A stretch of 63,430 bases of DNA, filler included, from Dirinaria sp. TL-2023a (taxonomy: Eukaryota), in the NCBI GenBank assembly GCA_051941275.1. It is 19 parts of 19 records of this genome, joined end to end, with 100 filler letters (N's around TTAATTAATTAA, not from the genome) between each part and the next. Parts side by side here need not be neighbours in the genome. Positions count along the whole stretch, not along the records: positions 33,631 to 36,870 come from JAVEBF010002089.1; 18 more parts are not named here. One strand, written 5' to 3'. Position numbers and translations under genes: made by a program. Under the pieces are notes generated by a model. That model ran no database searches, was not told where the DNA came from, and was given only the letters and a program-made list of their open reading frames with translations. Shown piece after piece: positions 20,104-46,878 of this stretch (its first letter is position 1; each line of letters begins with the position of its first letter).

Positions 20104-21036
20104 TTGAACNNNNNNNNNNNNNNNNNNNNNNNNNNNNNNNNNNNNNNNNNNNNTTAATTAATTAANNNNNNNNNNNNNNNNNNNNNNNNNNNNNNNNNNN
20201 NNNNNNNNNGGGTGAGGATATAAAAGTCATACATTGGGGGGGTGGAACTTTACCATTTTGAATACCGGCCGATCTAGATAACTAATGTATGTAGCTAGCA
20301 TGTTTGTTGTTGTTGTTGTTCAATTGCATGCATGCATGTGCATGTACAAGGCGATCGATCAGCATGTTTTTTTTTTCTCCTCTCGAGGACGGCAGAAGAT
20401 AGATCAGATTTCAATCTGTAGGGGGAAAGAAAAAACTTGTAAATACAATACATATAACTCAAGTACATACATACATAAACCATGATTCCCACCTATGTAC
20501 ATTTTATCTACATACGCTTTACGTTCTGCAGAAACACGCCCCCCCTCCCCCCAAGAAAAAAAACTTTACTTAGTTTTCTTATTCATGGATGTTGGTGGAG
20601 GGGGGAGTAATAAGTGCAAAAGAAAAGAGAAAGGTCGGTACGAGTACGAGGATAATTGTAAGATCTCATCTTACCTACCTTATATATAGGGAGCACTTAT
20701 TTGTACCCGCGCTAGGAGAAACCTTCCACCGACACTAACCTGATAGGGTAAAAACAACTACACCTCACCCAAAATTTCTGTATAATCTAGATAACTTCCC
20801 AGGTATTTTCCCGAAAAAATACCTGGCTAAATTTTGACAAACAATTTGGTTGTTTCCTGGAAAATCTAGATAAAAATGCCTGCTAATTTCACCAAGCAAT
20901 CACCAAAGTCAACATTGACAAATCGTCATTGCATGTTTTTACCTAAGAAATCTATGCTTGTTGTCTCTGACTCTCATCGTCTTCGCTTCATTTTCTCGCT
21001 CTGCGTTTTCTTCGTCTTCTTGACTATGATCTCATC

Positions 21037-21162
21037 TGTCAAAGACCTTAACCTTGGTTAGATAGGTTTCCCAATGCAAAGGACTTGGTTTAGTTAGTCT
21101 TTTAGCCATGCCGGGACTTTTACCATTAGGAAACCTATCTAACCAAGGTTGGGTCTTTGACA
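21037..21162. mobile_element. 126-bp foldback/MITE-like element with ~40-bp terminal inverted repeats (TGTCA...TGACA)
   Basis: Left arm TGTCAAAGACCTTAACCTTGGTTAGATAGGTTTCCCAATG versus reverse complement of the right arm TGTCAAAGACCCAACCTTGGTTAGATAGGTTTCCTAATG. Confidence 0.6.
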
Positions 21163-23470
21163 TCGATAATGAGAGACTTATGACAGAAGACAGAAGATCG
21201 TCGCGTGTCGATGTTGTCAGATGATTCGATAAAAATTTTTTCGAAAACAGATCAGATTCTCATTCTCGAAATCATAAACAATGTCGCTCAATTGAAACAT
21301 TGAGTTCGCAACGACGGCGATGCTGTTTGAGATCTTATAAAGAAATATCGAGTGAAACGTGATATGACGTTGCGCTGTGTAAAAAAGTGAAGAAAGATGA
21401 AGAAAATGAGAGACGATGCAATGAATCAGATCATAAGAGCACAAAAAAGACTTCAGATTAATAAACAAGATTTTGAACAAGAAAGAGTCTTAAATTTAAA
21501 TCTTAACGATCAATTGCACGAGAAAAATGATATATTACAAGATCGTGATGTAAAAATATCGACATTGAAAAAGCAGTTGCTTGTTGTCAAGATTGTTGAT
21601 GCTGATGAAAATTCGATACTCATCAATAATCAACATCGACGTCGACGAAATCGTAACAGAAGCAGAAACCGATCGTTCATGTTCTCATCTGCACGTTCGA
21701 AAAAATCAACTAAGATGTCGAATCTCTCAGTGCTTATCGATAACATCGACTTTATCTACATCAATTGACGTCTGCAAATAACGGACAAACTTCGCATCAA
21801 TGCGAATCATTTCTCGAATGAAATCGATAAAACGATTTATATTTGTTTACGAGTAAACGACGATGTCGCGAATCACATTAACGTTTATCGACTCAGTAAC
21901 TCTGACTATTTTAGAATTTCTCAATAGATTATGACAACACTAAACAGCATTTACGAGAATTCTAACCGTCAGAAAAACGCGAGACAGAAGTTCAAGCATC
22001 TCAAAATGCAAACGGAGACGTTTTTTCATATCTTCTATGTCAAATTTCATCGCTGTGTCATCATTGTCGATATATCGCAGAACTATATGATGATAAAATT
22101 GAAGAAAAAAATTCTGCCGCGTATGCAGAAAATCATAATCGATAGTTCTTCTGCGGCAACAACACTGAATGAGCTGAGATTATATTTAACTCAATTGAAT
22201 AATCTTCAACGTCATTTAATAGCAAATCGGACAGACAATAAATCGAAAACGAGTGCAAATATATCGATTTCTAGCAGTGCAGTCACTTTAAGATCTTCAG
22301 CTCATGCAGTTATTCGTGACTCGACGTCTGTGATCACTATATCTAACTCACAGCGTTTTCGAGACAGCATCTCAGCACACAATGACAATCGAATCTACAT
22401 TTCGATCTCAAAAAATATCTCGAATCGTATCATCTGTCGAAAATATGATGAAGTCGATCACTATGTCAATGACTGCTCGCATCATCAGAAAACTCGTATT
22501 CATGAGATTGACGTCGACGATGACTTTACTAATCAACACTCGAAAAACGAGTAATCATCGACAGTGACGCTTCGAATGACGAAATAATCACATCAAGCAA
22601 TGTCTTTGATCAGAAATCTTACGATCGATTTTTTTTATTTGTCGATTGCTCTTTAACTCTATTAAAAAAAAGATATGATTTCAAGACATTAGTGAATATC
22701 GATTCACAGATGTACTTCGTTATAGACGAAGAAATAATCGAAAAGACATGCAGATTTTTAGATTTGCAATCTATATCTCTTTTCAGATCACGATCAGTCA
22801 GAAAATTTAATAAAATACTGAGCAAAAAATCTATAACGCATGTTATATATTTTTTTCTAACTGTTAACAATTATTCGAAACTCATTTGCTCTATACTTAT
22901 CACTTAATTGAGTACTTATAAAATTATATTGAGCAAGCTCTGAATAAATAAACATGATCTGAAACTGAATATAAAGAAGAATCAAATGATTTTTAAAAAA
23001 AGAAAATGCAGAAAATTAAATTGTCGATTTGAAAGAATTTGTCAAAGTTCAATTTCATAAAAAACAGTCACAATCCGATCTTCAGTATCTTCTACATCGA
23101 CGCCCGTCGAAGCATCTAAATTGACTAGCTCTTCGCGTTATACGATTTTAAAAAAATCACTCATCATAAACAAGATCAAGAAGATATCTGCGTTTATCTC
23201 GCTGATAGCAAATTCTTTCACGATAATTGCAAGCGTGTAAAAAAAAAAATCGATCGATATACAATTAGTTAATGCTGCCGCATTCATTATGCTCTCACAA
23301 AGAGAACTTCGCAATAAAAACGATTTTAAACTCTTTTCTCTTACTATGTCACAATTGAATCGAAAACTTCGTCGTCGATTCTATCAGTACAATAGCGCTA
23401 ATAATGACATCGCTGCATCGACAATATCATCAATGACTATGAAGAATATTATTAAGTTGATCCCCTCGAA
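21163..23470 (+). mobile_element. Degenerate Ty3/Gypsy LTR retrotransposon: gag (zinc knuckle) and protease region
   Basis: Gag-like LNSIYENSNRQKNARQKFKHLKM; degenerate CCHC knuckle CRKYDEVDHYVNDC; protease-like KTLVNIDSQ (from ALVDTGSQ) in the -1 frame; many TGA stops; CC/GG depleted. Confidence 0.85.
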
Positions 23471-24032: not shown

Positions 24033-26824
24033 ATGGCAGCTCCACAACCACAGCGACAGCATACGCAACCTCATCGACCGTCCGTAGGGCCCAATATACT
24101 GTCCAAGATGTTGCAGTTGGAGAAGCAGAGCAAGGTGTGCATGTCCCCATGTTCTTGATACGGGCCCAGTCGTAAACTATCAAGTCTCGGCGTATCCATC
24201 AAACCCACAACATCTGATGTTTGTCCACCTCTGGCAAAACATACCCACTGACAATCTGGTTCTTAGGAGCACCGCGTCTATGCAGCTACTGCCATGGGCA
24301 CCACCCACAGTAAATCGGCAGAGAAAGCCAACTCCTTTGGGAGTATGGGAGATGGCTTGCCTCTCAAGGCTCAGGGTGCAGCTTCACCACCCTCAGCATC
24401 ACCTGCCCAGGCCACTCCTCCTACACTTACACATCGCTCCAAAACCATGCCCATCTTGACACCTGATGCCAGAATGCCTCCAAAAGAGAAGGAGAAGCCG
24501 TCACTCACCATCGACCCTAGCAAGACTGTGGACAACGACGCGGATGCTAAAGCTTCGATTTGTGGATCTCCTGGTTGGTCTGACCACAAAGGAAAGGAAA
24601 AAAAGAAAGCGAAGAAAATAATGGAAGAAGAGAGGAAGAAGCAAGAGAGAGAGAAAAAGGAGGCGGAGAAGAAAGCGAAAAAGGAAGCCGAGAAACAGGA
24701 CGCCGCTGCAAAGAAAGCAGGCAAGCGCGAAGGACGTCTGAACAAAAGACCACCACCGGCTGCCATGGAAACACAACGGATGCCATCCGAGCTGAGGCGT
24801 CAGCAATCCGACTCGCGTCGTAACTCGATCATTTCCATGTTCTCTTCCGCTACTTCGTCCAATGAGAATTCCCGACGATCATCCAGGGACCTGAAGAGAC
24901 TGTCTGCTCTCTCAACTGGTTCAGGGGAAGAGCGCCGCTCTCGATCAACCCCTGGGACTAGCACAGAGGTTGATGACCGTCCTACCGTGATTGGAGCAGC
25001 ACCTCAACTTCCAGCACTGCCACGATTCGGTTGGCGTTCTCGCAGTGGATCCTCGGCCGGAAGCAAGTCCAATTCTTGGGGCAGCAGCGATGAAGCTTAC
25101 AACCGAAGCTTAATTGAATATGCATACCAGTTGAACCCGAGCTCGAACTCAGCATCATCAAGCCCGAAGCAGACGGCCTTCAATCAGAAACCGGCACTTC
25201 AACCACCAAGACCGCTTGGACGGAGCCATACCGACACTGCGCTGATCACAATTGGTCAGGACGAACCAGCAACCAATGAGGTACGTGTAGCAGAGCGGAA
25301 AGGGTCCGATGACAGTCATGGCAAACCAAAGAACAATAAACATGGAGCCCATCGCTCTGCAAAGGTCAATCACGCCGCCGAAGCTGCGGATGCAGCTGTC
25401 ACGAACAGTAGCGTCACTCATGGAAGTCGTCGAACCGGTAGTTCGGAGAGGGGTGCATTTGTTCATCCTTTACAAGGAAACCCAAGTCTTACGGAGCCTT
25501 CTGTTGACGGAAGCAGCTATGTTCATAAGCAGCGCATGTACCAGCAGCAGCGATCAATGGCGGGCTTCCAGGATGAGGAAGCGGTCAGAGACGCTACGCG
25601 TTCGATTGACCAAGAAGCAGAGGTGCCACGGGAGAAAGAGAACGGTTTTGTAGATGGCCAGAAAGCCGAACTTGTTCTTCAGGATTCTGAGGAGGTACCT
25701 CCTGTCCCTCGACTTCCACAAATTGCAGTGGACGTCAACGAGCCTGTGAAGCATCATCATGACTACCTCAGGAAACCCCGAGAAGGTGAATCAGTAGTCC
25801 TTTTCCATCCAGACAATATGCCGGAATCGAGGAAACATAGCTTTCTCGGCTTTCCTCGTCGGCCAAAACCGGTAAAGCAATCTTCTCAGACAACGAGCAG
25901 ATCTGAAAGTTCTACGGATAAGACGAATGTCGAGCCACGAACGTCCCCACGACTTGACAACCAGATGGCCGAAAAGTCTCCTGTCCGTGCATCGAAAGCA
26001 GAGCATTCTTCTGTGCATGTCTCCAAAGCAGAGCGTACCCCAGGCGAGCATATGCCAATTGAGGCTCCGGCCGGTCAAGCCCGTACTGGCCGCTCAAAAA
26101 CGTCACAGGTTCCGGCGGACAAGGAGCGTACTTCGACCCGCAAATCTTCGTCACCCAGCCAAGGCCGTTCGAAGCTTGCGAATGCTGTGGTTGACAAGGA
26201 GTCCCCGCCCAGGAAGACCGCCTCACCGACAAGACGAAAAGAGGCTTCACCAGGTCCAGCCTGGCCAAGCACAAAGCAGAATGGCGCTATTGACGGAACC
26301 CAGATGAAGGATGGATCCTTGTTACGGAGCCATTCGAGAACGCGCACGTCATCGTCGCAGCTACTGAACGAAAACGTATCGATGCCGCGCCCTTTGCCCA
26401 GATCGACGACTGCCCCTGTCCTGCCATCTTTCTCCATGGAGCCGTTCGACCTTGCTGATGACGAGTCGCCCCCCACTGTACCTCCAAAACCAGATCGCGC
26501 TCAATCTTCCCAGTACACCGAGACAAGCACCGTTCAGAAGCGAAGCTCCGCTTCTCCGACCAGCAACGACGCCTCCTCAGCCAACCAAAAGTTCCCCGAG
26601 GTCATCATCTCCACGGAGCAGCCGGACGGGGTGGTGCGCAAGACATCCCTGAAACGCCCACGCTCCAACCCCCAGCTGCAAATCACCGCCGCTCCCCCCG
26701 TGCCGAACCTCGATTTCCTCCCCCAACTCAAGCACCAGCCGCTCGTGAAACCGAAACCACGCTCTCACCTGCGCAACAGCGTCTTACACATGCCCCAGCA
26801 CCCCGGCAGCAGCACCACCACCAC
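24033..26824 (+). CDS. Large Ser/Pro/Lys-rich, probably disordered fungal protein, 3' truncated; intron 24135-24266
   Basis: ORF of about 840 aa. Upstream exon MAAPQPQ...LEKQSK splices in frame (GTGTGC...CTGAC...TAG) to EHRVYAATAMGTT. Contains ICGSPGWSD and a K/E coiled-coil stretch. Confidence 0.75.
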
Positions 26825-27451
26825 NNNNNNNNNNNNNNNNNNNNNNNNNNNNNNNNNNNNNNNNNNNNTTAATTAATTAANNNNNNNNNNNNNNNNNNNN
26901 NNNNNNNNNNNNNNNNNNNNNNNNCGATAGAGCAATGTAATCCGCAGGTACTAGATGGACCAAGAAAAGAAAAAAAAGACCATTTTTGGGATGACAATGA
27001 AATGACCGTTTCATAGTCGGGTTTGGGTTCATAGGAAAAGAAAGCTGAAGATATTGTAGCTGGAATCCTCGCTTGGTGTGCTTGATCCTCTCCTCCTTCT
27101 CGAATGTATATGTGTATAGGCTGATGATATGGGGGCTCCCAACGGGATGGAGAGCTAAATATGTGTCTAGAATAGAAAAGTACCTCGTACCTCGCAAGTA
27201 GTAATCTTCCGGTCACCGGTCCAGAGAAGGCATGTGACCTTTCAGACTTGTGGCTGATGAATTGCATCCTTTTTCCTGCTTACCTTCTTTGTTCCACGAG
27301 CCCCACAACAACGAGCGGACTTAAATGCCGCCTCCCAAGCACAGCGCCTTCGCTAGAAGCAACAATCCCCATCTCTATAAAGCAAGGACAGACGTACACT
27401 CACAAGACAACCAGGCTCCGTTGCCGAATCATCGTTTTTCGAGGGAACATG

Positions 27452-30278: not shown

Positions 30279-33200
30279 TTAATAAAGCTTGTTCGAAAGA
30301 TAGATTTACCTCAGAGAGAGACTTCATATAGATGACTTCCTTTAGAAATGACTCTGTGAAGGCGTTGTTGACGTTTACTTGATGACATTCGAGATCCTTC
30401 AATGCGACAAGAACTAGAAACAGACGTAAGATGTCGAATTTCACAGTTGACGCGAAAGTATCGATGTAATTCACTTCGAACATTTGAGAGAATTCTCTAG
30501 CGATCAGTCTAGCTTTGAGTTTATTCACAGTATCGTCGATATGCATTTTTGTCTTGAACACTCACTTGCTACTGACGATGTTGGCGTTCTTCGACGAGAC
30601 AACGACGTTTCAAGTTCCATTCGCTATCAATGCGATCAGCTCGGCCTGAATGACTTCGAGTCATAATTTGCCTCATATCGAATCATTGATCGCGTTCTCG
30701 TAGCTCTCTAATACTGAGATTACTAATCAGTCTGTGAAACGTCTGCTTGAATTATCAACTGTTGCTGTCAGAGCTCACTCGTTCTTTTCTTCGTTCTCTG
30801 AGTCTTGAGCTAGCAATGCGAGCATTGCTCTTGCGATTTTACTTCGATGTTCGTCTCGCATTTTCTCTTCAGTCACATCGTCACGTTTTCGCTTTGAAAT
30901 GACAACATGTAGAAACTGTTGAGCCCTTGACGGTGATGTGATTAAAGATGCCAGTTTGACTCGTGTTTCGACGGACGATTCCGCGGTGAGCTCGTTTTGT
31001 TCGACGTCGTTCTTCAGATCGGGGTTGTAATTCTGATCATTACTTGTGATCTTCATTGACTCGACGGAAATCTTCTCAATCTTCTCATTTGTCGAACTCA
31101 TTGCTTGAGATGTCGAACTAAATATGACTTCGAAAATTGCCTTTCGCGGTCTTTCAATCGATCTTCTATCAGGCAGAGTATTCAGTATCGCTTTGAGTAG
31201 ATTAAGTGACGCGCTCCCCCACTTCTCTTGTTCCGAAAACTTTACTCTATGATGCTTTATCATATCTTTTCTATCTGAAGCCCACATAAGATATTGTGAA
31301 GTGATGTTTTCGTCATATCTCATGAATACGCAAGGTCTTTCTCTGTTGACGAGCTTATCTGTTCTACTTCCGCTGAGCAAAGATCGAGTATCGACAGATG
31401 AATAGCATTTGCATCCCCATATTCTTATATGATTTATGCCTGATTTGACCTCTGTAAGAGCCTCTATTGAAGTGGTCAATCTACCGTCGATGACTGATTC
31501 TGTAGTCACTCGACTTCGTATGTAGACGTCCGCATGTCCGACTTCAGGCCAAAACTTCATAGACAGCTCAGCGTCTTGAATCATAGCTCGAATATTGTTC
31601 TTCGTGATTCGTATTCCTCGCTCGACTACTTCATTTTGCAATGAATTGTAAATAACGATGTATTGTGAGATAATTTCGATTGAATTGCATCATTTATCTA
31701 GAATGAACTTAAGTTCACGGGCGTTATCACTGCGTACTGTCATTAACTTTGTCTGATATTGCAATTCACTTTTCAACTTCCATTTACAAAGGACTTCCAC
31801 TGCATCCGAGCGTTGATGAAGTGATATAAATCAAGACTTTCGAGAGTAGTTATCTATAACCTCTAAGAAGTACTCGTAACCTGATCGTGAAATCGATAAA
31901 GGGCCGCAGATATCGATTGATATCAGAGCTAATGGTTGAGATTTTCTTTCTGTCAGATTACGATTTCGTCTATTGATCATTTTAGTGAGTGCACATGTTT
32001 CGCAAGACTTGTCTGTTTCATCGATGAGGATTTTTTGCATCGTGATAATCTTATGCAGATTTCTAAGCTTTGCGGAACCCATGTGAGCCATACGTCGATG
32101 CCAAAGAGTATATAAATCTCGCTTCTTCGGCGATAGTTCTTGAGGTTGAGATTTTCTTGATTCGGAGTCGATGCTAGTATCGGATGTTTCGAGATCTATC
32201 GTCAATGACTTATCTGACTCGATTGTTACGAGCAGAGCAAAAGTGATAGACGATGTCGGGATTGCTGTCAATGCAAACTCGTCTAATTCGAGTGTTATTT
32301 TGTCTACTACATAAACACCTCCTTGTGCTGATGCTCTAAGTACTTCGGTTCCGCTTCGAGTACTCATTCATAAAGAATCATCGTTGAAACTGTCTAATAA
32401 GCCTTTCTTTGTAAAACGTCGTACAGATAATAGATTGACCCCTAGGTCAGGAACGTGTAGAACCTTCATTAAGCGGCTTTCACCATTCTTGACCCTTATT
32501 GCGACTGTGTCACAATGATCTGAGTATAATCTCCCCCCTTCAATCTTAATCGTACGTCTCTTAATGAGTGTGAGAGATCCGCTAAAGAGTTGAAGTTGAT
32601 CAGTCATGTGAGACGAGACGCCGATATCTGCTACTCAATAGAAACGAGAGAATTTACTGACTATTTCTTTGAACAGGGCAGCGATTTCTTCGATATCTTC
32701 TTCGCTGTTGCAGTTGTCGAATGAGATGAAAACATCATCGCTGTTTGAGAACTTCTCCGCGTTGTATGCACGCTGTTTAGATTTCTTGAACTTATCTTTC
32801 TTGACGATCTCTTTATGTTTGTTATAGAACCTGAGGGCCTTTCGAATCAGTTTCAACTGATCGCAATTCATTGCCTTATATCCTTTTTCTTCACAAAGCA
32901 GACAAAATACGTCTTTGCGTCGAGATTTGTTGTCTTTGCGTGCGGATTTACGAAGGCTATCATCCGAGCTAGACGAGCGTCGCTGACGATTGAAGTTGCG
33001 ATAGTTGCCGCGGTCGTAACTTCGTTCACTGTTTCTATTGATGCGGTCGGCGTCTCGATTATTGTCTTTAGCTCACATTACCGTCTCATCTGCTTTGAGT
33101 TGAGCTTCTTTGTCCATTAGCTTTTGAAAGGATAACTCCACGTCGAGATCTTTTTGCGCGTCGATGGCATCCCTAATCACGCTGTATTCTGGTGGGAGGG

Positions 33201-33530
33201 ATTGAAGAAGAGTTTGAAGGCGACGCGCAGGAGTATTGAAGCTTGCCATATCTGGAGTGGTTGATGCCATTTCGCGAGTCAACTTGAACAAGTGTATGTA
33301 GGCTTCCTCAACCCCGACATCTGCGGATTTTTTGTAGTTGAAGAAATCCGCGATGTGTTGACGACCGATGGTGGGCAATCGCTCTGTATATTTGCTCTTC
33401 AATGCGATAAATATATCCTTTGACGAAGTTTTCTCGACAACGTATTCTTCGTCATCCTTACTGATGCAGTTTCTGATGTTAAACTTCGCCTTTGCATCGT
33501 CTTTATTTGCCTCAAAACCAGCGTCTGAGA
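30279..33530 (-). mobile_element. Degenerate Ty1/Copia LTR retrotransposon: gag, protease, integrase, start of RT
   Basis: LLQSLPPEYSVI gag; knuckle CLLCEEKGYKAMNC; protease *VADIGVSSHMTD; GAG-pre-integrase LWHRRMAH...CETC; integrase ISIDICGP; RT SK*VFKTK...KARLIAREFSQ...HQVNVNNAF. Order PR-IN-RT is diagnostic of Copia. Confidence 0.93.
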
Positions 33531-33630
33531 NNNNNNNNNNNNNNNNNNNNNNNNNNNNNNNNNNNNNNNNNNNNTTAATTAATTAANNNNNNNNNNNNNN
33601 NNNNNNNNNNNNNNNNNNNNNNNNNNNNNN

Positions 33631-34846
33631 GTTCGTGATCATCATGTGAAAATCCTTATGTGAAAGACTCGACATAAGAAGCAAGCTTTCTACTGCTTAT
33701 CACTCTCAAATCGACGATCAAACAAAACGCTTCAATCAAAATATCGAGAAACAGTTACGTTTATACTGCAATTACATGCAGAACAACTGAGTTGACTTTC
33801 TATCGATGACAGAATTCGTCGACAATAACGCAGTCGTCGTCGATATCGATATGACTCTCTTCTACGTCAATAAAGGTTTTCATTCTCGCGTGTTCTTCTT
33901 CTCTGACGATATCAAATACATCACTGCAAGAGATCGTCTACAAACGACGAATACGAAGAATATAACAGACATTATGAAAAACGTACTGAATCTGATGAGA
34001 GAAAACGCAGAGATCTCACAAGCGATCATGAAGAAACAAGCGAATAAGAGTAAAAAGAAGATATTTTATAACGTTGAGAACATGATATTTCTATCGAGCA
34101 AGAACATTGTCATCGATAGATTTTCAAGAAAAATCGAAGACAAGATGCTAGAATCTTTCTCGATAATCAAAGTCATAGAAATCTTTTATGAGCTTCAACT
34201 CTCTGACATCATGAGAATACACAATGTATTTCACTCAAGTCTGTTGCGCAAGAATGTCGAAAACTCTTTATCGAGTCAAATACAAGAACTCTTCGACAAA
34301 ATCGTCATCAACGAAGACGATGAATGAGAGCTGATCGACATAGTCAGCTCGCGCTGACATTATGAGAGACTACAATATCGTTGTCGATGAGTAGAAAAAA
34401 AGAGTAGAGATTTGACATGATACGATATCGATAATGACGAGTTCATGCATGCGAAGAACATCACTCAGAACTATCATCATCGATATCTCGACAGAGCGAA
34501 AGACGTAAACAATAACAAATCTTCGCAGAGACGTCATCGACGTCATGACTAAGACATACACGCGATGAGGACACCGTTTTTTGAGAGAGAGAGATAGTGT
34601 TACGAGTCTGACTCTCACTGTTGTTACTCGGATCATTTTCTACAAGATTTTTGTGTGTGATGTTGAGTTTTGACCTGATCGAGGTTAGCGCATCCGAAGT
34701 GATGATCGGTCCGGCCGATCAGGGTCCAACGCCCACACATCCATATTATGCCTGATTTCAGTTCATAGATTTCTTTTCTTCTTCATGCTTTGTGTATTTA
34801 GTTGATAGCACCTGCATAGATCATACATTCTGCACCGGTCCTGACA
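33631..34846 (+). mobile_element. Gypsy chromovirus A, 3' end: integrase, chromodomain, PPT and 3' LTR (34598-34846)
   Basis: [28 protein letters not shown], chromodomain E*ELIDIVSSR...QYRCR*; purine tract GAGAGAGAGAGATAG, then TGTTA...TGACA. Confidence 0.88.
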
Positions 34847-36819
34847 AATATCAGACACTGAAGTTTTCTTAAAAGATCACTTCAGAATCGCTCGACGAAA
34901 TGATTCATTGTATAAAGAAGTTCGTCGAGTCTTACGTCTCGATCATTCGAATTTTATCAAAGATTTCTCGCTAGCAGAATGCTCTTTAGTCGATGAGCAG
35001 ATACAGTATCGAGTCGAAAGAGTCATTTACGACGATGAAAATCACTGAAAAAATGATCGATTAATGATTTCACAAGATGAAGAGTTGCGATTTCGACTCA
35101 TTCGTTTGACTCATGATACTTCGAGCGCTGATCATTCAGACGCTGTCAAGATCTATGATATTCTCGCTCGAAATTATTGATGAATCGATATGACTCAAGA
35201 TATACGTCAATTCACTCGCAACTGTCGACATTGCTCTCGCATCAAAGTTTTCAGAAATAAGTACTTCGAAGCTCTTCGTTCTCTGTTCGTCTCTGAACGA
35301 CGTTGAGACGATATTTTAATGAACTTCGTTGTTGAGTTATCTTCGAGCAAGAACAATTGAGAAGTTAGCTGCGAAAACATGATGATTATTACTGATCGTC
35401 TTTCAAAAATGACTCACGTAGAGTCGATCACAGAACTCATTTCTCAAAACGTGATCAAGACGTATCATTTCATCGTATGAAAGCATCACGAATTACTCAA
35501 AATCATAATTACGAATCGTGATTCACAGTTCAAAAATCATTTCTGAGATGAGTTATGTCTTCGTCTAAATTCTAAAGCTCAATTGTTTATCGCATATCAT
35601 TCGAAAACGAATGATCAGACGAAACGTACTAACAGTATAGTAAAGCAATATCTTCGAGTCTTCTACGTTTATCTTCAAGACGACTGAGCGAGATGAACTC
35701 CCTCGATCGAATTTGTTATTAAAAATCATGTGTTCGAATCAACTGACTGCATTTCGTTCTTCGCAAACTCTGATTAACATTCAAACATGAGTTTTGAATC
35801 TTCTCGAAATCTTAAAGACTATGATTTTATCATCAGACAATTATTACTTCGTACTCGCGCTAATAATTATGCTGACAAAATGAACTCTATCAATCAAGAA
35901 CTTCAAGCACAGATGAGATGAGCTTAAGTATGACACGAACATTACGTCAATTTTTATCGAACACATGAACCTCGATATGTCGTTGAAGATAAGGTCTGAC
36001 TAAATACTAGAAACATGAGAACGAAGCGTCTCAGCAAGAAACTAGTCAACAAGAACGACGAATCTTTCGAAGTAATACAAATGATTAGCTCTCATGTTTA
36101 TCGTCTTCAACTTTCAGACAATTGAACGATTCATAACGTTTTTCATATCTCGCTTCTAAGAAGAATCGTCAACGACTCATTATCAGAACAATTATCTTCA
36201 AAATCACGCTCTGATCATACGAACAATAAAGGCAATGAGCACTGAGAATATAAGACTATTCATGCTTCGAAGATCAGACAAAATCATTAACACTTTCTGA
36301 TCGAATGAATTGACATCACTCAAATCTGAAAGCCAATAGAATATCTAGACTTCATCGAACTAATTGAGAAATTCTATCAAGCTCACTCGAGAGCATCAGA
36401 TAATGATTTCTGAGCATAGTACGATCGAGAAGACACTCTCGATCTAGATTAAATATCAAGCAAGATTCGACCTTCATCTCTTGTACTCGTCGCAAAACGT
36501 GAACTCGCAGAAGCTCGTCTTTTTCAAAAGAGGGAGATACTGTCACGATTTCATGATCGTTATCTAGAACGAATATCTCCGTGACAGTTCTTGACAGAAT
36601 TCGCTTATCGTTTCTGACGCATGTTATTCTTGATATTGAAAGTTCGAGTTCGTTTATTGGCAATTGCGATATCTGAGCTTAAGCGACACAGCTCAGAGGT
36701 TCTTAAACTCCCTTACTCTCTATAGATTGCTCCTTTTCTCTTTTCTTCTTCGTGGTTTGTCTTGTATAATAATCTTGATCTAAGTCAAGTAATCCTCGTC
36801 CAAGCTCGCTCTCGTGACA
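34847..36819 (+). mobile_element. Gypsy chromovirus B, 3' end: integrase HHCC and core, chromodomain, PPT and 3' LTR (36541-36819)
   Basis: THDTSSADH...NCRHC zinc domain, IITNRDSQF, AYHSKTNDQTKRTN, IHNVFHISLLR; PPT AAAAGAGGGAGA, then an LTR with a perfect 8-bp terminal inverted repeat TGTCACGA...TCGTGACA. Confidence 0.9.
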
Positions 36820-36970
36820 GCAAACGATATTGTTATTGAGATTTAAGATCGTCATAATTAGACTCTGTCTNNNNNNNNNNNNNNNNNNNNNNNNNNNNNN
36901 NNNNNNNNNNNNNNTTAATTAATTAANNNNNNNNNNNNNNNNNNNNNNNNNNNNNNNNNNNNNNNNNNNN

Positions 36971-37649
36971 CACCGGATAGCGAGGGGATCCTCAGCCGTG
37001 GCAGGAAAGTATGATGCATCCGCTGAGGATGAGGCAAGGCACGAAGTTCGAGGCTATTCCTAGCGTTGTGTCGGCAATCTCGAGCGTAGGCTCTGAGCTC
37101 GCTCTCTGAAAGTTGTGGCGGTGTGTTGTTTGCTTGTTGGACAATAGATGGCAACCTCTTAATTTCTGCAAAACTTGGCTCGTACTGCTCCTGGTTCACT
37201 ACGGGCAATTGACGCCCGACAGTGTCATTTAGCTCTACAGGAGCGAGATATACAGGCTCCGGCAAGGGACCCATCTCAATATCTATCTCTCTCGAACGAA
37301 ACCCGGCCAGCGGCGCAATCCTCGGCTGTGGAATTATCCGACTTGAATGACGCTGTGAGCTGTCAGCGACGACATAGAACCTGTCTGGTCTCGGCCACTG
37401 AGATCCTTCAGAGGACGTTCTTGACCTGATACTCTGATAATCGTCAGGTTTATTGATGGGAGGCATTCGATGATCGTACCTCACCCTATCTTCCATGCCT
37501 TGGATGCCATGAAAGTGCCCTATGGGATGCCAATTCCGTTCCTCGCGTGCCTTCTTGTAGCGATCAAAACCGTACCAAATGAGCAGAGCGAGAAGAATGA
37601 GGCCGATCGTCATACCTACGCTAGCCGGTTTGGAAATCCCAGACCCCAT
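36971..37649 (-). CDS. Single-pass membrane protein 1 (MGSGISK...), 3' truncated
   Basis: ATG at 37649; hydrophobic VGMTIGLILLALLIWYGF, then basic RYKKAREERNW and a Pro/Ser/Arg-rich tail; open to the contig end. Confidence 0.6.
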
Positions 37650-40307: not shown

Positions 40308-40475
40308 ACCAGGTTCTCAGCAGTCAGCGGATACTAATACTGCCCAAGCTAGTGGTTCGAAAGCCAGTCCATCACAGGCCGCTCAGACTGCACCAGGTTC
40401 TCAGCAATCAGCGGATACTAATACTGCCCAAGCTAGTTCATCGAAGGCAAGTCAGTCACAGGCCGCTCAGACTAC
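40308..40475 (+). repeat. 84-bp coding tandem repeat in MSB2 (PGSQQSADTNTAQASxSKASxSQAAQT)
   Basis: Two copies visible; the contig begins inside the array. Confidence 0.85.
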
Positions 40476-43410
40476 GCCGAACCCAGCGCAATCTCCACCA
40501 GATAGCTTGCAGACAAGCACTGAGCAGTCGAGTACACCGAAGCCGATTATACCCATACCGATACCCTCAAACTCCAACGGAGTTGGGATAAGTGCGGGTA
40601 TCAGCGCTGGCAACAGCGGGCTTGGGGCAGGTATCAGTGTTGGAAATAGCGCAGGACAGTCCGGAACCCAACAACCCGTGAAGACGACTTTGGGCCAAGG
40701 GAAGCCAACCACTGCTGCAGCTGCAAGTACAGGTCAGCCAGGAAGGCCCGACTCTGTCATCCCCGTGGGATCTGGAAAACCAACGACTGGTGCCCAGAGC
40801 ACTAAGCCTGGACCGATTGGTACTTTGGTTGGCGCATCAAGCAGTGTCGTGAATTCGGGACCGCCGCCGAGCAAACCGTCGTCCCAAACGCAGCAGGCCC
40901 CGGGTGCTGGCAGTACTTCTGGCAGAGGAGGTATCATTCCTATATCAAGGACGCCGAAACCCTCGGCTGTTATTTCGGTACCAGTCACAATTTTGGGATC
41001 TGACACCACGTTCACGACTGCTTCCCCTGTAACCATTGGAGTTGGAGCTGGAGCCTCTACTTTTGCGCAGCCCTCGAACACCAAGAATCCTCCTGCTGGA
41101 GCTTCTAGTGCCGCGCACGCTTCGAACTCCGAGGGGCTACCGCCCGTTGTGCCAGTCACGATATCGAAATCGAACTCACTGTTTGTCACTCAACTGCCAG
41201 TCGTCACCCCAACAGCCATTGCATCCAACAGTGCCCCTGTCCTCCCGCCAGCTGCCTCCAACTCCCAGGCTGTCATATCACTGCCCGTTGTGGTCTCACA
41301 ACCTGATACGACGTTCACTGCCAAACTTCCGATCACCAATCCAGCAGCGGCATTATCAACTGCTGCGGCGGCCGTGTCCAGTGGGGTTGCACCTGTCTTG
41401 TCCTTGCCAATCACAATTTCCGACTCGGGCACGACGTTCGTCACGAATGTTCCTATCAGCAATCCTGGTGGTGCTATCTCGACTGTACTTGGTGCTGTGA
41501 CCAGCAATGTGGTCCCTGTTCCCTCAAAGCCTGGTGCTGTGACCAGCAATGCGGTCCCTATTCCCTCAGTGCCTGTTACGATTTCAAATGGCGACACAGT
41601 ATTTACCAGCAACGTGCCGATCAACTCTCTGAAGCCTGCCTCCAGCGGTAATGTCATATCTCCCGTACCGATCAATACTCAGAAGCCTGCCTCCTCCAGC
41701 GGTAATGTGGTTTCCCCTGTGGTCATACCTATTCCGAGCAAGAGTCTCGGCGGTGCAATTACTTCTTCAATCAAGCCTGGTTCCACTGCACGACCGGCGA
41801 ACCCCTCAACGTTGGTTGGCGCTTCCGCCGTTGTGACGCCTGGCAGCCCCAAGTCTACACAGGGACAAGAGAGCGGGATCGTCAATACTCCGTTACCAGG
41901 CAGCCAAACCACGGCTCGTGGCCCAGCAGCTGCCACTACTGTAGCTCCAGGCGTGAGCGGTGCTCCAACAGGCGGCATTGTACCTGAACCTCATACAAGC
42001 GGCACTGTAAACGGCGTTACACCCAGCGGATCGGAGCCAAGTAACATTCCTGTGACAGACAGTCAACCCGGTGCTTCTCAAAGTAGTGTTGCGACACAAC
42101 CCGAGATCACCGAGCCAAAAAGTGGTAGTCCTGACGTTCCTACGGACAGTTCGGCTGCGAAAGCTACTGGCACCGCGGTTACTGACACGAACCCAGAGAA
42201 CTCTGCGTCTGCGGCAACCGCGAATCAGGGCTCTGTTTCTAGCCAGCCGGGAGCAGTTGGAGGAACAACACATTCAGAACCGGGGGCTGCATCTGCGACA
42301 GGGCAACCATCAGCAAGCCCTGCTGCAGCTCAACATACCACCCAGGGCGTACAGCCTGCACCTTCGTCAGTCGTTACGGCCAATGTTGCATCTCAGTCCA
42401 AAGACTACGGCAACAAGGGGCCAGGTCCAACTAGCCTCTCGCCTACGGCTACGGACTCATTCACAGCGCAAGCCGTTCCCTCGAGCATCATAGTCCAACC
42501 TTCAAGAACATCTGCCGCCTCCCAGAGCCAGGACTTCACCGCAACAGGCATCCCATCAAGCCTTCCCCACGTCATCACACCTCCAGGCGGCGCTCCAGAC
42601 CAACCTCCCAATACGACGCTCGTCCAAATTGGTTTCTTGTACCCGCTCAACTACCCCTTTGTGCTCGCCAACACCCTTTCCCAGAAGCAAATCTTCAAGT
42701 ACGTGCCTCCTGGTATTGCCTACGGCCTCGGCATCGATGACGTCAATGTTACCATGCAAACGCTCCGGGCCTACGACACCACCGCCAACCTGCACTACAT
42801 CACAACTCTCGCCCTAGCCTACGTCCCCTCGGGAATGGTCGACAAGCTTTCTCTCGATCTGCATACCCCTGCTATGCCCATCTACCACAATCCCGACCCG
42901 AGCGTAAAAACCCTCTTCAGCATGGTGAACCCTGCCCTACCCATCCGCGCCGACGACACCGGATCCGCAGCAACCAGTGGTGCCGCCAGCGGCCCGTCAT
43001 CCACCGCATCCGGCTATATCCAGCCTGGTGCCCCTATCGGTGGAGGCATGGGCAACGACATGCCCGTGCGGCCTTCATCCGTTGGTATCGGCGTCGGCGT
43101 GGTCTGCGGTGCCGCAGCGTATGGAGCAGCAATGTTCTTCGTTGCCCGGAGATACAAGAATCGCCGACAGTCGCATCAGCGCTCTCCTTCGCTCCTGTCG
43201 AGTCCGGTCATGAGTGGCACTAACCCGGACGTTGCGGCCGCAAGCGTACCTTTCATGAGCGGCGCTCGGGGCGATGGCGGGCGTTCGACGAGTCCAATGG
43301 ACGGGTACGGGTACGGGCGGAATTCGAGAGGGAGCGGCAGAAGTGGCAGCACGGGACGACAGCAAATCAGCGCGCCGGTCATGGCGGAGAACTCGCTTGG
43401 TTGGAATTGA
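40309..43410 (+). CDS. MSB2: Signalling mucin Msb2 (Hkr1/Msb2 family), 5' truncated
   Basis: Ser/Thr/Pro-rich ectodomain; HMH domain TLVQIGFLYPLNYPFV...QIFKYVP...TTLALAYVP; TM VGIGVGVVCGAAAYGAAMFFVARRYK; diagnostic C-terminus QISAPVMAENSLGWN. Frame is open from the contig start. Confidence 0.95.
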   Translation, partial: PGSQQSADTNTAQASGSKASPSQAAQTAPGSQQSADTNTAQASSSKASQSQAAQTTPNPAQSPPDSLQTSTEQSSTPKPIIPIPIPSNSNGVGISAGISAGNSGLGAGISVGNSAGQSGTQQPVKTTLGQGKPTTAAAASTGQPGRPDSVIPVGSGKPTTGAQSTKPGPIGTLVGASSSVVNSGPPPSKPSSQTQQAPGAGSTSGRGGIIPISRTPKPSAVISVPVTILGSDTTFTTASPVTIGVGAGASTFAQPSNTKNPPAGASSAAHASNSEGLPPVVPVTISKSNSLFVTQLPVVTPTAIASNSAPVLPPAASNSQAVISLPVVVSQPDTTFTAKLPITNPAAALSTAAAAVSSGVAPVLSLPITISDSGTTFVTNVPISNPGGAISTVLGAVTSNVVPVPSKPGAVTSNAVPIPSVPVTISNGDTVFTSNVPINSLKPASSGNVISPVPINTQKPASSSGNVVSPVVIPIPSKSLGGAITSSIKPGSTARPANPSTLVGASAVVTPGSPKSTQGQESGIVNTPLPGSQTTARGPAAATTVAPGVSGAPTGGIVPEPHTSGTVNGVTPSGSEPSNIPVTDSQPGASQSSVATQPEITEPKSGSPDVPTDSSAAKATGTAVTDTNPENSASAATANQGSVSSQPGAVGGTTHSEPGAASATGQPSASPAAAQHTTQGVQPAPSSVVTANVASQSKDYGNKGPGPTSLSPTATDSFTAQAVPSSIIVQPSRTSAASQSQDFTATGIPSSLPHVITPPGGAPDQPPNTTLVQIGFLYPLNYPFVLANTLSQKQIFKYVPPGIAYGLGIDDVNVTMQTLRAYDTTANLHYITTLALAYVPSGMVDKLSLDLHTPAMPIYHNPDPSVKTLFSMVNPALPIRADDTGSAATSGAASGPSSTASGYIQPGAPIGGGMGNDMPVRPSSVGIGVGVVCGAAAYGAAMFFVARRYKNRRQSHQRSPSLLSSPVMSGTNPDVAAASVPFMSGARGDGGRSTSPMDGYGYGRNSRGSGRSGSTGRQQISAPVMAENSLGWN

Positions 43411-43644: not shown

Positions 43645-46600
43645 AACGGACTAACCCCCGAGTCAAGAATTATTCATGGCTGAGCACTCGAGATTCTTTA
43701 CTAATTACAGGAATCTACTTTTTAATGCTTTCTTGAAACTTAAGAAAATATTCGACTGAGGAATCAGCATCATCGCAGATGATCGGCAAGAGCTTTAAGA
43801 CTATAAGATTACTGAATTTGCACCTGATGAGCGTTTCTTCACTGAGTTTTCGAATTCAAGAACGTCTTTCGTCTCGGGAGAACTCAAAGTCAAAGTCTCA
43901 ATCATTCACTTAAAGAAAAGGTTCAATGATGTGAACTGAAGACAGGCTCTCGCAACCCTCGATCCATGGCTTTCAGAGCTGTTGAATAGTCGCTCTAGAG
44001 ACAACCATCACGGCGTGAGTGGTTAGGCTATGAGTGGAACAACCAAAGGACTTACATGAGGAGTAGAAGATTAAAGTTCTGAAACTCGGCAAGTATATTG
44101 ACTTCACGATATTATGGAAGAGTGCGGACTCGAATCAGGGCAAGCGTTCCTGTAGTCGCTGGGGTCTCTGAATTCAAAAGCGCAGTTCTGCCTCGACAGA
44201 ATATTCTAGGGATTTTTACTATAACAGAATTATAGTATCCCATACACCAAAATTCTCGCTTCCCTTACTGGTTTTTACTACACATTTCATAAGCATGTGC
44301 CTTTTTAGTCCTTTTTCTTTTTTCACACATGGAGAACGGAGCCATCGCGGCTCTGCCTTCAGGTCTCGCAGTGTTAGCCGTGGACAATGACTTTTCTTAT
44401 AGCATCGGAATGCTTCAGCTGCATCTCATCATAAAACCAACGGACATATTCTGCAAAATAGAAATCTGGGAAAACAGAGCAAAAATGTCGAATAAGCACC
44501 CCTAGGTGGGTCTTTCCTAGGAAATGGAACTCAATCAGACCACCGTCAAAGCTCGTATCTTTAGACGAAAGACTAAAACAGGCGGCACGAGACTTAGAAT
44601 TCACCAGATAGATACCAAAGTGGAAAGAACAGAAAACAGAATCAAAGATACAATATTTCTCTGTCTGTATAATCATGATTATACTATGTATGCAAAGATC
44701 TGTTGTACCCAGGTTTTCAGTCAAATCAGGATTAAGACCGCTCGCAGAGCTAAGTTGAGAGTAAAAACAGACGCTGCGCATTCTTCTTGCCAGTCCAATC
44801 CAAAAGATGAAACATTGTGGCAAGCAGCAATATTCTAAACCTAACGAAAAGATCAGAAGAACAGCAGCAGCTAGACACCAGTACCACCGCCACAATCACC
44901 TTCATAACGATCTCTCCCACATCCACTCATACAATGGTACGGAGATGCTATCTATGTAACGAGAAGGTGGATATTCAAAAATGATAGTTTCACGCGCTGT
45001 CAGTCTTTCGACTGACCTTGGAGCATTTTTTAAGCTTCTTTTCTATTCTGAATCTGATCGATATCATATAACTAACTCGGCGCGGAGAAGAGCCTCTTTA
45101 AGAAGGAGACCTTCTATGCTCCAACGCGGTCTATTATCACTCCTGCGTCCTCTCTCTCTCTTATTTCGTTCTCTCGTTGAAGAACATCCTACACATCTCT
45201 TGCTATTGGTTCTATGAAAGCGGAGCTGTGCTCGTTGAAATTCAGAACTTGTTTGATCATGGTTCTGCTCATGATCGCTTCGGACGGAAGTCTGAGATCA
45301 TTACAACGTTGAAACCGATCATCATGCCGTGGATTTGCCAAGCGTCTAGCAAACACGCCATCATAGGTGATAATGTACAGCTCAGCTTGGCTTGGAAAAA
45401 ATTTCTGGTAGGCATTGAGTCAGATCGAATAGACGTCGCCTCGAGACGAAATTTATCCTGCCATGTCAAGTACTTTCACTCATCTCACTTCATCACTGCT
45501 CAGTCTGCTCTTTATTACAAAAAAAAAAAAAACAATCTCTTTACAGTGTTTTTTCATTCAGTACAGACATTGATCGCAATGATCGAGTTATCAAAAAATT
45601 CAAAATCACCTCCAACTTCTTTACAAAAAATGCATTTAGTTGCATCAAAATTTTTGATCAAGTCTATAACATGGACACAATTTTGGCTGCTACAAATGCT
45701 CAATGATCTCATCATGATCTCTTCGCGCGTTTAACAATGCTAAATGTCGTTTTTCTCATTTGATCAGCTCATAAGTTAACTGGCCAATAGCAGAAAGTCA
45801 TTCGATTACTTGAATACTACGCATGATAGCTTAAGCCATCTGATTTCGAGTAATTTAACTTCATTGACTCCCTTTTAATGCGCAGTCATGAATCACATCT
45901 ATTTGAGCATTCGCCCATCGAAGCAAACGAAATACCGTTTGAGAGTGTTAGAGTATCTCAAACCATTGGAGACGAACAGCTCTGATCTTAATACGCTTAA
46001 TAATTTTTATACAATAAGAGAATGACCTCAATTAACCTATATCGGTTCCCGACCCTGCCCCCAATGACGCCAGGTAGTTCCATTCGCTCCGCACTGCTCG
46101 GTTACTATCGGTAGGACCATGCTCAAGCTTTGTGAGAATCGAAGACCCTGTTCGGTCCAAATAACGATGCGAGGCAGTAGTCGATGCGGAATCGATACGG
46201 GACTGAGTACATTGAGTCGGATAAATGAGCAAAGCTAGAGCGTTTCTACTCGGCAGTGGACAGAAGAGAGAATTGCAAGGATTTGCCGTTTGATCATGAA
46301 ATTCTACCTAGAGGGCCAAAGACGGTTTTTAGCGACTGAGATATCTGATCGTCCATCATTAATGCACGGCAGCTTACTCAAATTATTCGCACAAATGAAA
46401 TTTAATAATTGATATCGTGATTTTGGCGACGCTGAGAAGGAAAGATTGTTCCATATATTTGACTCTGCTTTAAATCAATGTAAGCTGGATTCTAACTTTT
46501 GAATAATTGATGCTCAATTAATAATTGCTGGCTGAAAAGATGATGATATCGTGATCCATATGAAAGCTACTGCTGATTTGACTATAGTCCTTTTCGACTC

Positions 46601-46878
46601 GGATGACGAAGCCTCACGGAATCTGTGTTTGAGAATAATCAGACATAATTATTTCTTTTATAAGTCCAGCTCATTTGAAAAGTCAAGCATTTCGTCGAAA
46701 CTAAGACTTGCACCGCTTCAAAAATTTTCGAACATCTCAGAGACTCGACTTTTTCGATTTGAACGCTGTCCAATCTTCTTTTCTCGTTGTTCAATCCAAA
46801 ATATTATGAACATGAAACGCGTGATTGATTCATCTTTATATTTATAATACATAAAATCCTCGTCGAGCGACTAGCAAT
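43645..46878. other. AT-rich degenerate region with ORF relics, unassigned
   Basis: Stop-interrupted frames and patches of CC/GG depletion (for example 45480-45780 and 46540-46870); no domain recognised. Confidence 0.3.

Follow-up and report, generated by a model that had tools for sequence, protein, structure and literature searches.

Among the closest described relatives of the pattern reported here is RIP, the context preference of which has been determined by crosses. In Neurospora crassa the order is CpA>CpT>CpG>CpC, and in Trichoderma reesei CpA and CpG are used about equally and CpT is preferred over CpC (PMC5496416). RIP can proceed by Rid-dependent and by Dim2-dependent routes, and a kingdom-wide survey of 2025 describes a common CpA preference among RIP-like defences (PMC12543289). 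In the transposons of Pucciniomycotina, which are basidiomycetes, a TpCpG hypermutation with TCG as its target has been reported (Horns et al. 2012, PMC3318451). Among lichen fungi, RIP has been reported in Cladonia rangiformis (PMC12542154), Xanthoria (bioRxiv 10.1101/2025.11.25.690456) and Endocarpon pusillum (PMC3897900), where it was called from G+C (10-20% in Cladonia), from RIPper or from CpA-based indices. All these sources are cited from excerpts; in the excerpts from the Cladonia, Xanthoria and Endocarpon reports no mention of a context other than CpA was found, the term 'CpC' occurring 0 times in each.

The DNA considered here is a stretch of 63,430 nucleotides, filler included, from Dirinaria sp. 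TL-2023a (GCA_051941275.1), composed of 19 parts of 19 records joined end to end and referred to below as the window. Judging by the flanking genes, the host is a lecanoromycete (lichen-forming) fungus. A first-pass annotation of the window had proposed that its transposons were hypermutated at CpC and not in the classical CpA context of RIP. The features on which the comparison is based are the following.

21163..23470, plus strand: relic of a repeat of no assigned class, likewise depleted in CC/GG
30279..33528, minus strand: Copia fragment with gag, beta-barrel, pre-integrase, integrase, SH3 and the start of RVT_2 (six Pfam families)
33632..34552, plus strand: Gypsy/Ty3 fragment A, comprising the C-terminal portion of an integrase, from the S-AYH-Q-D-QT motif onwards, with an SH3-like domain and a tail resembling a chromodomain
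34591..34870, no strand assigned: island without mutation between Gypsy fragments A and B, 280 bp, with normal CC+GG
34878..36539, plus strand: Gypsy/Ty3 fragment B, comprising an integrase with H2C2 zinc domain and catalytic core, an SH3-like domain and a tail resembling a chromodomain

The region 33631-36540 reads as two unrelated Ty3/Gypsy pol 3' fragments. Fragment B matches Integrase_H2C2 (PF17921) at 7.1e-10 and SH3_Tf2-1 (PF24626) at 7.3e-13, so that the H2C2 zinc domain and the Tf2-type SH3 domain at the 3' end of pol, by which Ty3/Gypsy is recognized, are both present; the SH3_Tf2-1 (PF24626) match of fragment A (E 6.7e-07, 29.8 bits) lies just under the cut-off of 30. The two fragments belong to different families, with 86 of 296 aligned residues identical, and Gypsy relatives are numerous in public protein collections (10912 at E<=0.001). 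For the relic at 21163-23470 no credible Pfam family was found, the part from 21400 to 23469 giving just a sub-threshold match to UPF0738; a gag-like frame containing what is left of a zinc knuckle was read there by eye only. Two regions with a mild CC/GG deficit, 16845-20109 and 43645-46878, matched no Pfam family, and neither a tRNA scan nor Rfam gave a match in the island or its surroundings.

The composition of 33631-36540 is strongly skewed. CC and GG occur together 32 times, against a mean of 203.1 expected from 500 mononucleotide shuffles (sd 11.5, z -14.9), the lowest of which contained 169. Expressed as observed/expected ratios, CC (0.17) and GG (0.14) are depleted, TC (1.75) and GA (1.72) are enriched, CT (1.08) and AG (1.07) show no enrichment, and CA (1.09), TG (1.00) and CG (1.63) show no depletion; TA stands at 0.58. 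Nineteen of the 32 remaining CC+GG sit in the 280-bp island, which departs little from its expectation (19 versus 24.1, z -1.4). The zone of fragment A (33631-34590) holds 4 versus 67.8 expected, and the zone on the fragment B side of the island 9 versus 111.2, CpC being mutated to saturation in both. Within the window, the longest stretches without any CC or GG measure 860 bp (34840-35700), 846 bp (22229-23075) and 694 bp (33875-34569). In gene blocks of this window CC (0.97-1.01) and GG (0.93-1.00) are normal, and within the window the loss is confined to transposon fragments, genes and island alongside being normal. The mutated relics have a G+C of 34-39%. In the mutated zones of 33001-37000 the classical RIP indices are negative, TpA/ApT being 0.51-0.66 and (CpA+TpG)/(ApC+GpT) 1.11-1.25, whereas a CpA-targeting RIP gives a high value of the former and a low value of the latter.

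These results bear on several statements of the first-pass annotation. Its central observation, that CC and GG are nearly absent while CA/TG and CG remain common, is reproduced (32 versus 203 CC+GG). It had ascribed the loss to Gypsy coding regions, which is right for 33631-36540 according to Pfam and wrong for 30279-33528, a minus-strand Copia. It had also extended the same bias to two other regions: the relic at 21163-23470 carries it clearly (CC 0.14, GG 0.09; CC+GG 15 versus 130.9 expected), and the Copia fragment is partly mutated (CC 0.54, GG 0.37). Its expectation that CpA/TpA indices would largely overlook the signature agrees with the values above; the usual RIP tests miss the footprint because its target is the context least used by classical RIP.

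The direction of change was fixed by comparison with unmutated relatives, eight unmutated homologs being used for the Copia codon table. The frame of fragment A (33632-34561) is interrupted by 6 TGA and 1 TAA, and that of fragment B by 17 TGA, 4 TAA and 1 TAG, with no TGG left in either; the 11 in-frame stops of the Copia fragment are all TGA, and 6 TGG remain. Conserved Trp positions in the Gypsy fragments are TGA in 10/10 cases (A 4/4, B 6/6) and never TAG, and when the Copia fragment is included, the 23 conserved Trp columns comprise 17 TGA, 5 TGG and no TAG. Conserved Gly has become GAN in 15 of 17 positions (A 4/5; B 11/12, plus 1 AGC). Conserved Pro in the two Gypsy fragments is TCN in 20 of 39 positions, with 4 CCN left; those of fragment B (n=25) comprise 15 TCN, 2 CTC, 1 TTC and 4 CCN. 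The loss of Pro as well as Gly codons, like that of CC as well as GG, places the mutation on both strands, as in RIP, and the product dinucleotides agree with the 5' C as target, TC and GA being enriched and CT and AG unchanged. Codons with C in other contexts are largely retained: CAY is kept in 13/14 conserved His positions and a stop replaces conserved Gln in 0/10 (both fragments), and CGN is kept in 9/11 conserved Arg positions of fragment B. A TAA at a Gln-majority column (35925, n=1) fits another context, as does His>Tyr in 1/14 (Gypsy) and 2/10 (Copia) positions.

The Copia fragment is about half mutated at CpC, and changed and kept sites can be compared within it. Second-position C before C was changed in 16 cases and kept in 9, the corresponding figures being 4 changed versus 25 kept before A, 0 versus 23 before T and 0 versus 13 before G. 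The -1 base had little effect on CpC mutation (9/16, 11/19, 9/17 and 18/27). The coding strand is mutated at 25/32 sites and the other strand at 22/47 (Fisher p 0.0096), and the mutation load rises towards the RT end. Compared with the protein P0001, changes of the C>T/G>A type number 170 forward and 43 reverse.

Further evidence comes from pairs of proteins in public assemblies (ENA and Logan, several sources), which possibly belong to species other than this one and were compared at the protein level only. Some relatives are intact and have a normal content of Gly (4.8-5.9%) and Pro (4.1-5.9%); beside them stand copies free of both residues. Such Gly/Pro-free, Trp-keeping 'proteins' make up 14/150 Gypsy representatives and, among the 33 Copia relatives found, 5 of the 13 closest; their 'Trp' would stem from TGA translated with a code in which TGA is Trp. 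Between the intact P0004 and the mutated P0012 (1344 residues aligned), 286 of 287 differences are C>T/G>A changes and none runs in reverse, which is the one-directional, transition-only change of RIP. Pro was lost at 68/69 positions and Gly at 68/68, and the CpA sentinels changed in 0/88 cases (His>Tyr 0/40, Cys>Tyr 0/17, Met>Ile 0/31). In three pairs, the first G of the codon following Met (ATG) changed in 7/7, 8/8 and 6/6 cases, versus 7/70, 3/91 and 3/72 after pyrimidine-ending codons. The sister copies P0340 and P0341 show 207 differences over 1294 residues, and by reading of the pair list all their residue pairs are reachable by transitions alone, in both directions. CpG-type or CpT-type secondary changes also occur in public copies. 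A look-up of P0012 in the ESM Atlas returned generic Copia clusters only, and a close unmutated relative of Gypsy B was not found, its three closest long relatives (45-46% identity) being themselves Gly/Pro-poor.

The residue changes first quoted for the Gypsy regions (Trp TGG>TGA, Gly, Pro and others) are present as described, and the 12-residue peptide given there as an example is encoded by TCT ACT GCT TAT CAC TCT CAA ATC GAC GAT CAA ACA. The proposal that the 5' C of CC is converted to T on both strands is likewise upheld by the Trp codons (TGA, not TAG), by Pro being mostly TCN and by Gly being mostly GAN. The minor CpA component that had been added to it is at most weak. Intact relatives are not equally poor in CC/GG, to judge from their Gly and Pro contents, and changes at CpA, far from dominating, are near zero in the protein pairs.

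Within the window, a blastn self-comparison gave no match between the transposon fragments, and a purine/pyrimidine-collapsed 28-mer comparison, which would see copies differing by transitions only, gave no repeat. No sequencing runs containing 30279-36870 were found. A metagenome scan with the Copia protein yielded 2 loci (26-28% identity), neither of them short of CC/GG, and a scan of viral contigs yielded no relatives. The prokaryote genome scan produced a single Copia contig, mis-binned (L003), in which CC/GG is normal and CpG stands at 0.04; this CpG loss is a different process.

We consider it probable that a RIP-like, element-specific C-to-T process with a preference for CpC inactivated these LTR retrotransposon relics. 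Direct support comes from the signature itself, its direction, its CpC context, its presence on both strands, its sharply bordered restriction to single elements and the finding that intact relatives exist. Such a process would change a cytosine that precedes a C to thymine, would hit the two strands of a single copy and would continue in repeated rounds until CpC is exhausted. Each event would turn CC into TC, which would no longer be a substrate, and the process would therefore be self-limiting: TC and GA would accumulate, and G+C would halt near 35% without collapsing. Pro (CCN), Gly (GGN) and Trp (TGG) codons all hold the target, so Trp would become TGA, Pro would become Ser, Leu or Phe, and Gly would become Asp or Glu. 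The strand bias and gradient of the Copia fragment fit what a few discrete rounds would give. By analogy with RIP, the trigger may be duplication and the action may take place before meiosis; the candidate enzyme is a RID/DIM-2-type cytosine methyltransferase homologue, the 3'-neighbour preference of which would have shifted to C. The targeting is element-specific: saturated Gypsy A adjoins the least mutated Copia end, the 280-bp island between the two saturated fragments has escaped mutation, and on either side the genes have a normal composition.

Other origins of the pattern have to be weighed against this RIP-like process. In methylation-linked decay, a DIM-2-type methyltransferase would mark heterochromatic transposons, preferentially at CpC, and the 5-methylcytosine would deaminate over time, mitotically or meiotically, with no homology sensing. 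The limitation of the changes to transposon relics and to C>T would suit such decay, as would the Dim2-dependent route described beside the Rid route in the excerpted survey (PMC12543289). We nevertheless regard decay as unlikely. Adjacent relics (Gypsy A and the Copia) differ sharply in load and the island between the two saturated Gypsy fragments is intact, so that element-by-element targeting fits better than a regional chromatin state, and saturation in copies that are otherwise identical (286/287) points to fast bursts, not to slow decay. It is less likely still that a cytidine deaminase, AID/APOBEC-like or of another family, edited transposon DNA or reverse-transcription intermediates. 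Deamination of C to U yields the same transition, and CC is a known context of APOBEC3G. That enzyme, however, deaminates the 3' C, and on minus-strand cDNA only, which turns plus-strand TGG into TAG; here the 5' C is changed, conserved Trp columns contain TAG in 0/23 and TGA in 17/23 cases, and plus-strand C>T is equally saturated. Editing of cDNA is one-stranded (plus-strand G>A), whereas both strands are saturated here, as seen in Pro (68/69) and Gly (68/68) losses and in the CC and GG ratios alike. The specificity resides in the 3' neighbour, which is typical of cytosine methyltransferases, and the -1 base matters little.

That no mutation process acted at all, the families being natively CC/GG-poor or the pattern being due to a sequencing or assembly artefact or to UV damage, is hardly credible, and nothing beyond bare composition speaks for it. 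All three were rejected: Trp has turned into stops and Gly and Pro are replaced at positions conserved in relatives, intact relatives have normal Gly and Pro, and the same pattern appears in proteins of ENA and Logan assemblies from several sources. UV damage, moreover, should have depleted TC as well, whereas TC is enriched 1.75-fold, and should have affected the flanking genes too.

The RIP target is taken as essentially CpA across fungi, and a near-exclusive CpC defence departs from that. A full-text literature search, outside the scope of which the main ascomycete context survey (Clutterbuck 2011, Fungal Genet Biol) lies, found no description of CpC-dominant RIP. We see an even chance that some lecanoromycetes possess a defence enzyme with the inverse of the RIP preference, with CpC far above CpG and CpT and with CpA near zero, be it a re-specified RID homologue or another enzyme. 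It would disable proteins through the loss of all Pro, Gly and Trp codons at moderate G+C, its hosts would score as RIP-poor in index-based surveys, and its TGA-only relics would be deposited as Gly/Pro-free 'proteins' under TGA=Trp calling. Such a defence would offer a natural specificity variant for identifying the determinant of target context in the RIP enzyme. Surveys that depend on TpA/CpA indices or look for very low G+C would under-call some lineages, and relics that are not AT-rich raise the question of whether, and by what means, they are recognised as heterochromatin. The defence would also account for a class of spurious open reading frames in public protein collections that lack Gly and Pro and look TGA-recoded.

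In short, the locus shares features with each of the systems considered. With APOBEC3G editing it has in common the CC context and the inactivation of retroelements by Trp-to-stop changes, and it differs in the choice of the 5' C, in the involvement of both strands and in TGG>TGA. As far as the excerpts describe them, the TpCpG-mutated transposons of Pucciniomycotina resemble it in RIP-like, context-specific C>T change in repeats at a non-CpA target, inferred from sequence alone. Here, however, the target is the dinucleotide CC and flanking bases have little effect; CpG is not lost, given a CG ratio of 1.63 and the retained Arg codons. The RIP reports from lichen fungi, again in their excerpted form, agree with the present case in their lecanoromycete or lichen hosts, in retrotransposon relics of lowered G+C and in sharp borders to gene space, whereas here G+C is 34-39% and CpC alone is lost. 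With the RIP of Neurospora crassa and other Pezizomycotina several features are shared: only C:G>T:A changes occur, on both strands, transposon copies are saturated up to sharp borders and neighbouring genes spared, each sister copy is mutated on its own, and the host is a pezizomycotine ascomycete. Unlike Neurospora-type RIP, the process has left no TpA enrichment and no AT-rich isochore, with standard indices negative, and compared with N. crassa and T. reesei its context is inverted, CpC standing far above the others and CpA at about zero.

Across 33631-36540, G+C is 0.34-0.39, compared with ~0.5 in the flanks, and CC and GG are severely depleted (observed/expected 0.17 and 0.14, respectively). 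The product dinucleotides are raised (TC 1.75, GA 1.72), and the remaining ratios are CA 1.09, TG 1.00, TA 0.58, CG 1.63, CT 1.08 and AG 1.07; by comparison, CC is 0.97-1.01 and GG 0.93-1.00 in four gene blocks from this window. The window carries regular paired 44-N masks and is otherwise clean. The CC+GG count is 32 against 203.1 expected (500 shuffles; sd 11.5, lowest 169), and 19 of these 32 fall inside a normal 280-bp island, 34591-34870 (24.1 expected), with 4 vs 67.8 and 9 vs 111.2 expected in the zones on either side. CC/GG-free stretches extend over 860 bp (34840-35700), 846 bp (22229-23075) and 694 bp (33875-34569). Classical RIP indices are negative in the mutated region (TpA/ApT 0.51-0.66; (CpA+TpG)/(ApC+GpT) 1.11-1.25). 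The RIPCAL CpC index, (CpC+GpG)/(TpC+GpA), is 0.02-0.05 in mutated zones and 0.82-0.94 in genes.

The elements were identified by a Pfam scan of frames translated straight through, with X placed at stops:

30279-33528, - strand: Copia fragment with gag, beta-barrel, pre-integrase, rve, SH3 and the start of RVT_2
33632-34561, + strand: Gypsy A, a Ty3/Gypsy pol 3' end whose SH3_Tf2-1 domain scores slightly below cut-off
34878-36539, + strand: Gypsy B, a second Gypsy integrase with an H2C2 zinc domain and SH3_Tf2-1
21163-23470: CC/GG-poor relic, no matching Pfam family
Flanking ORFs, including an MFS transporter, a PhoD-like phosphatase and a GT2 glycosyltransferase

By its Pfam domains, 30279-33528 is a Copia element and not a Gypsy one. 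Gypsy A and B share 86 of 296 aligned residues and are therefore different families. All mutated elements in the window are fragments, and neither DNA-level nor transition-collapsed comparison found a second copy of any of them within it. Among the best 120 PhoD relatives listed, all organism-named ones are lichen-forming lecanoromycetes at 56-70% identity (Xanthomendoza, Letrouitia, Teloschistes, Xanthoria, Usnea, Letharia, Lecanora and others). These matches place the host in the Lecanoromycetes.

Several further observations concern the surroundings. Two long intact ORFs flanking the transposon cluster, 24294-26876 (860 aa) and 40507-43410 (967 aa), have normal CC/GG and no Pfam family; a purine/pyrimidine-level comparison shows short direct repeats at the start of the latter and just upstream of it (40308-40484), and inside it (41487-41569). 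An imperfect palindrome (21009-21197; 69.7% identical to its reverse complement over 198 aligned bases) sits at the left-hand border of the 21163-23470 CC/GG-free zone. The island 34591-34870, without match in tRNA and Rfam scans, shows that the process has abrupt boundaries. A mild CC/GG deficit (observed/expected 0.55-0.71) at 18001-20000 and 45001-46000, where no frame matches a Pfam family, may mark older or partly mutated relics.

Direction and context can be read from codons at conserved columns. For Gypsy B, a profile-free search gave 150 representative relatives, 131 of them with Gly+Pro >8.5%; the first 40 of these 131 with a BLASTP match >330 residues served as the unmutated reference. 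For Copia, 8 unmutated homologues were used.

Codons found at conserved columns (number of columns in brackets)
Gypsy B, Trp (6): TGA 6
Gypsy B, Pro (25): TCN 15, CTC 2, TTC 1, CCN 4, other 3
Gypsy B, Gly (12): GAN 11, AGC 1
Gypsy B, Gln (5): stop in none
Gypsy B, His (9): CAY 8
Gypsy B, Arg (11): CGN 9
Copia, Trp (13): TGA 7, TGG 5, other 1
Copia, Pro (33): TCN 18, CTC 5, CCN 7
Copia, Gly (37): GAN 14, GGN 20

Gypsy A agrees, with TGA at 4/4 conserved Trp and GAN at 4/5 conserved Gly columns. In-frame stops number 6 TGA and 1 TAA in Gypsy A, 17 TGA, 4 TAA and 1 TAG in Gypsy B, and 11 in Copia, all TGA; Trp-majority columns hold most TGA stops, and one TAA (35925) lies on a Gln-majority column. 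Because the changes are TGG>TGA, CCN>TCN and GGN>GAN, the target is the 5' C of CC. The half-mutated Copia resolves the context further: a second-position C was changed in 16 cases and kept in 9 when followed by C, and the corresponding counts are 4 and 25 before A, 0 and 23 before T, and 0 and 13 before G. The -1 and +2 bases have little influence. In this element the coding strand is mutated at 25/32 sites vs 22/47 on the other strand (p 0.0096), and the load rises towards the RT end.

Proteins in public collections extend the pattern. Of 33 Copia relatives found, the nearest 13 include five (P0005, P0006, P0009, P0012 and P0013) with Gly 0-0.8% and Pro 0-0.8% but normal Trp; in the remaining eight, Gly makes up 4.8-5.9% and Pro 4.1-5.9%. 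Gly+Pro is <3% in 14 of the 150 Gypsy representatives, and the three nearest long relatives of Gypsy B are likewise Gly/Pro-poor. Since loss of every GGN codon cannot leave TGG, proteins that keep Trp without Gly and Pro would, judging from the proteins, be hypermutated copies carrying no stops but TGA, ORF-called under a TGA=Trp code. Such entries are a likely source of spurious public proteins and false stop-codon-recoding signals. P0034, P0036, P0038, P0041, P0063, P0345 and others are also long, with ~0% Gly and Pro and normal Trp.

Intact P0004 and mutated P0012 differ at 287 of 1344 aligned residues; 286 differences are accounted for by C>T or G>A changes inside the codon, with none in reverse. 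Hypermutation aside, the two are practically identical. Pro is gone at 68/69 and Gly at 68/68 positions, and the CpA sentinels are unchanged (His>Tyr 0/40, Cys>Tyr 0/17, Met>Ile 0/31). The cleanest context test is the cross-codon sentinel, in which the first G of a codon is scored by the known last base of the preceding codon. After Met (ATG) it changed in 7/7 (P0004>P0012), 8/8 (P0001>P0005) and 6/6 (P0001>P0013) cases, and after a pyrimidine-ending codon in 7/70, 3/91 and 3/72. Secondary contexts vary by copy, being CpG-type in P0012 (Thr>Met 5, Arg>Cys 4, Arg>His 3) and CpT-type in P0005 and P0013 (Leu>Phe 11 and 30, Ser>Asn 7 and 11, Arg>Lys 12 and 13). The sister copies P0340 and P0341 are mismatched at 207/1294 residues; read by eye, transitions alone can produce every pair, and the changes go both ways, the outcome expected had each copy mutated independently. 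A Copia-like contig in a Hyphomicrobiaceae-labelled MAG (L003:1-4862), a eukaryotic contamination, has normal CC/GG with observed/expected ratios of 0.04 for CpG, 1.42 for CA and 1.45 for TG; its decay is CpG-directed, a different process.

The hypermutation is C>T only, at C before C, on both strands, and it reaches saturation. The first-pass annotation had read the region as CpC hypermutation, and this signature is real, strong and was correctly interpreted. The CpA-type outcome TGG>TAG occurs at 0/23 conserved Trp columns of Gypsy A, Gypsy B and Copia together. APOBEC3G-type editing of one-stranded cDNA is excluded, as the strands are symmetric and TGA, not TAG, is found. The process also acts element by element, because saturated Gypsy A adjoins the least mutated end of Copia, and the island between two saturated fragments and the genes are untouched. 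Regional methylation decay is a possible explanation but fits these contrasts less well. For the element-directed process, duplication would be the trigger, with premeiotic timing, and the enzyme would be of the RID/DIM-2 methyltransferase type, preferred over a deaminase because specificity sits in the 3' neighbour.

Parts of this picture have precedents. RIPCAL already defined a CpC>TpC class and index, in a paper that reports CpA dominance (PMC2621366). The target in Pucciniomycotina is TpCpG (PMC3318451), a survey from 2025 that spans 1,239 fungi describes CpA preference as common to RIP-like defences (PMC12543289), and lichen-fungus papers call RIP by G+C content or CpA indices, with CpC unmentioned in their passages on it (PMC12542154, 10.1101/2025.11.25.690456, PMC3897900). 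In two sooty-blotch fungi CpC and CpG fall alongside CpA, but the product is TpA (PMC5737583). A full-text literature search of main texts found no description of CpC-dominant RIP, and on sequence grounds the hypermutation seen here would be a RIP-like variant for which we found no earlier description. In its C>T-only changes, action on both strands, saturation and element specificity it matches RIP, apart from context: the measured preference in N. crassa is CpA>CpT>CpG>CpC and T. reesei also ranks CpC last (PMC5496416), whereas in this window that last-ranked context is the target.
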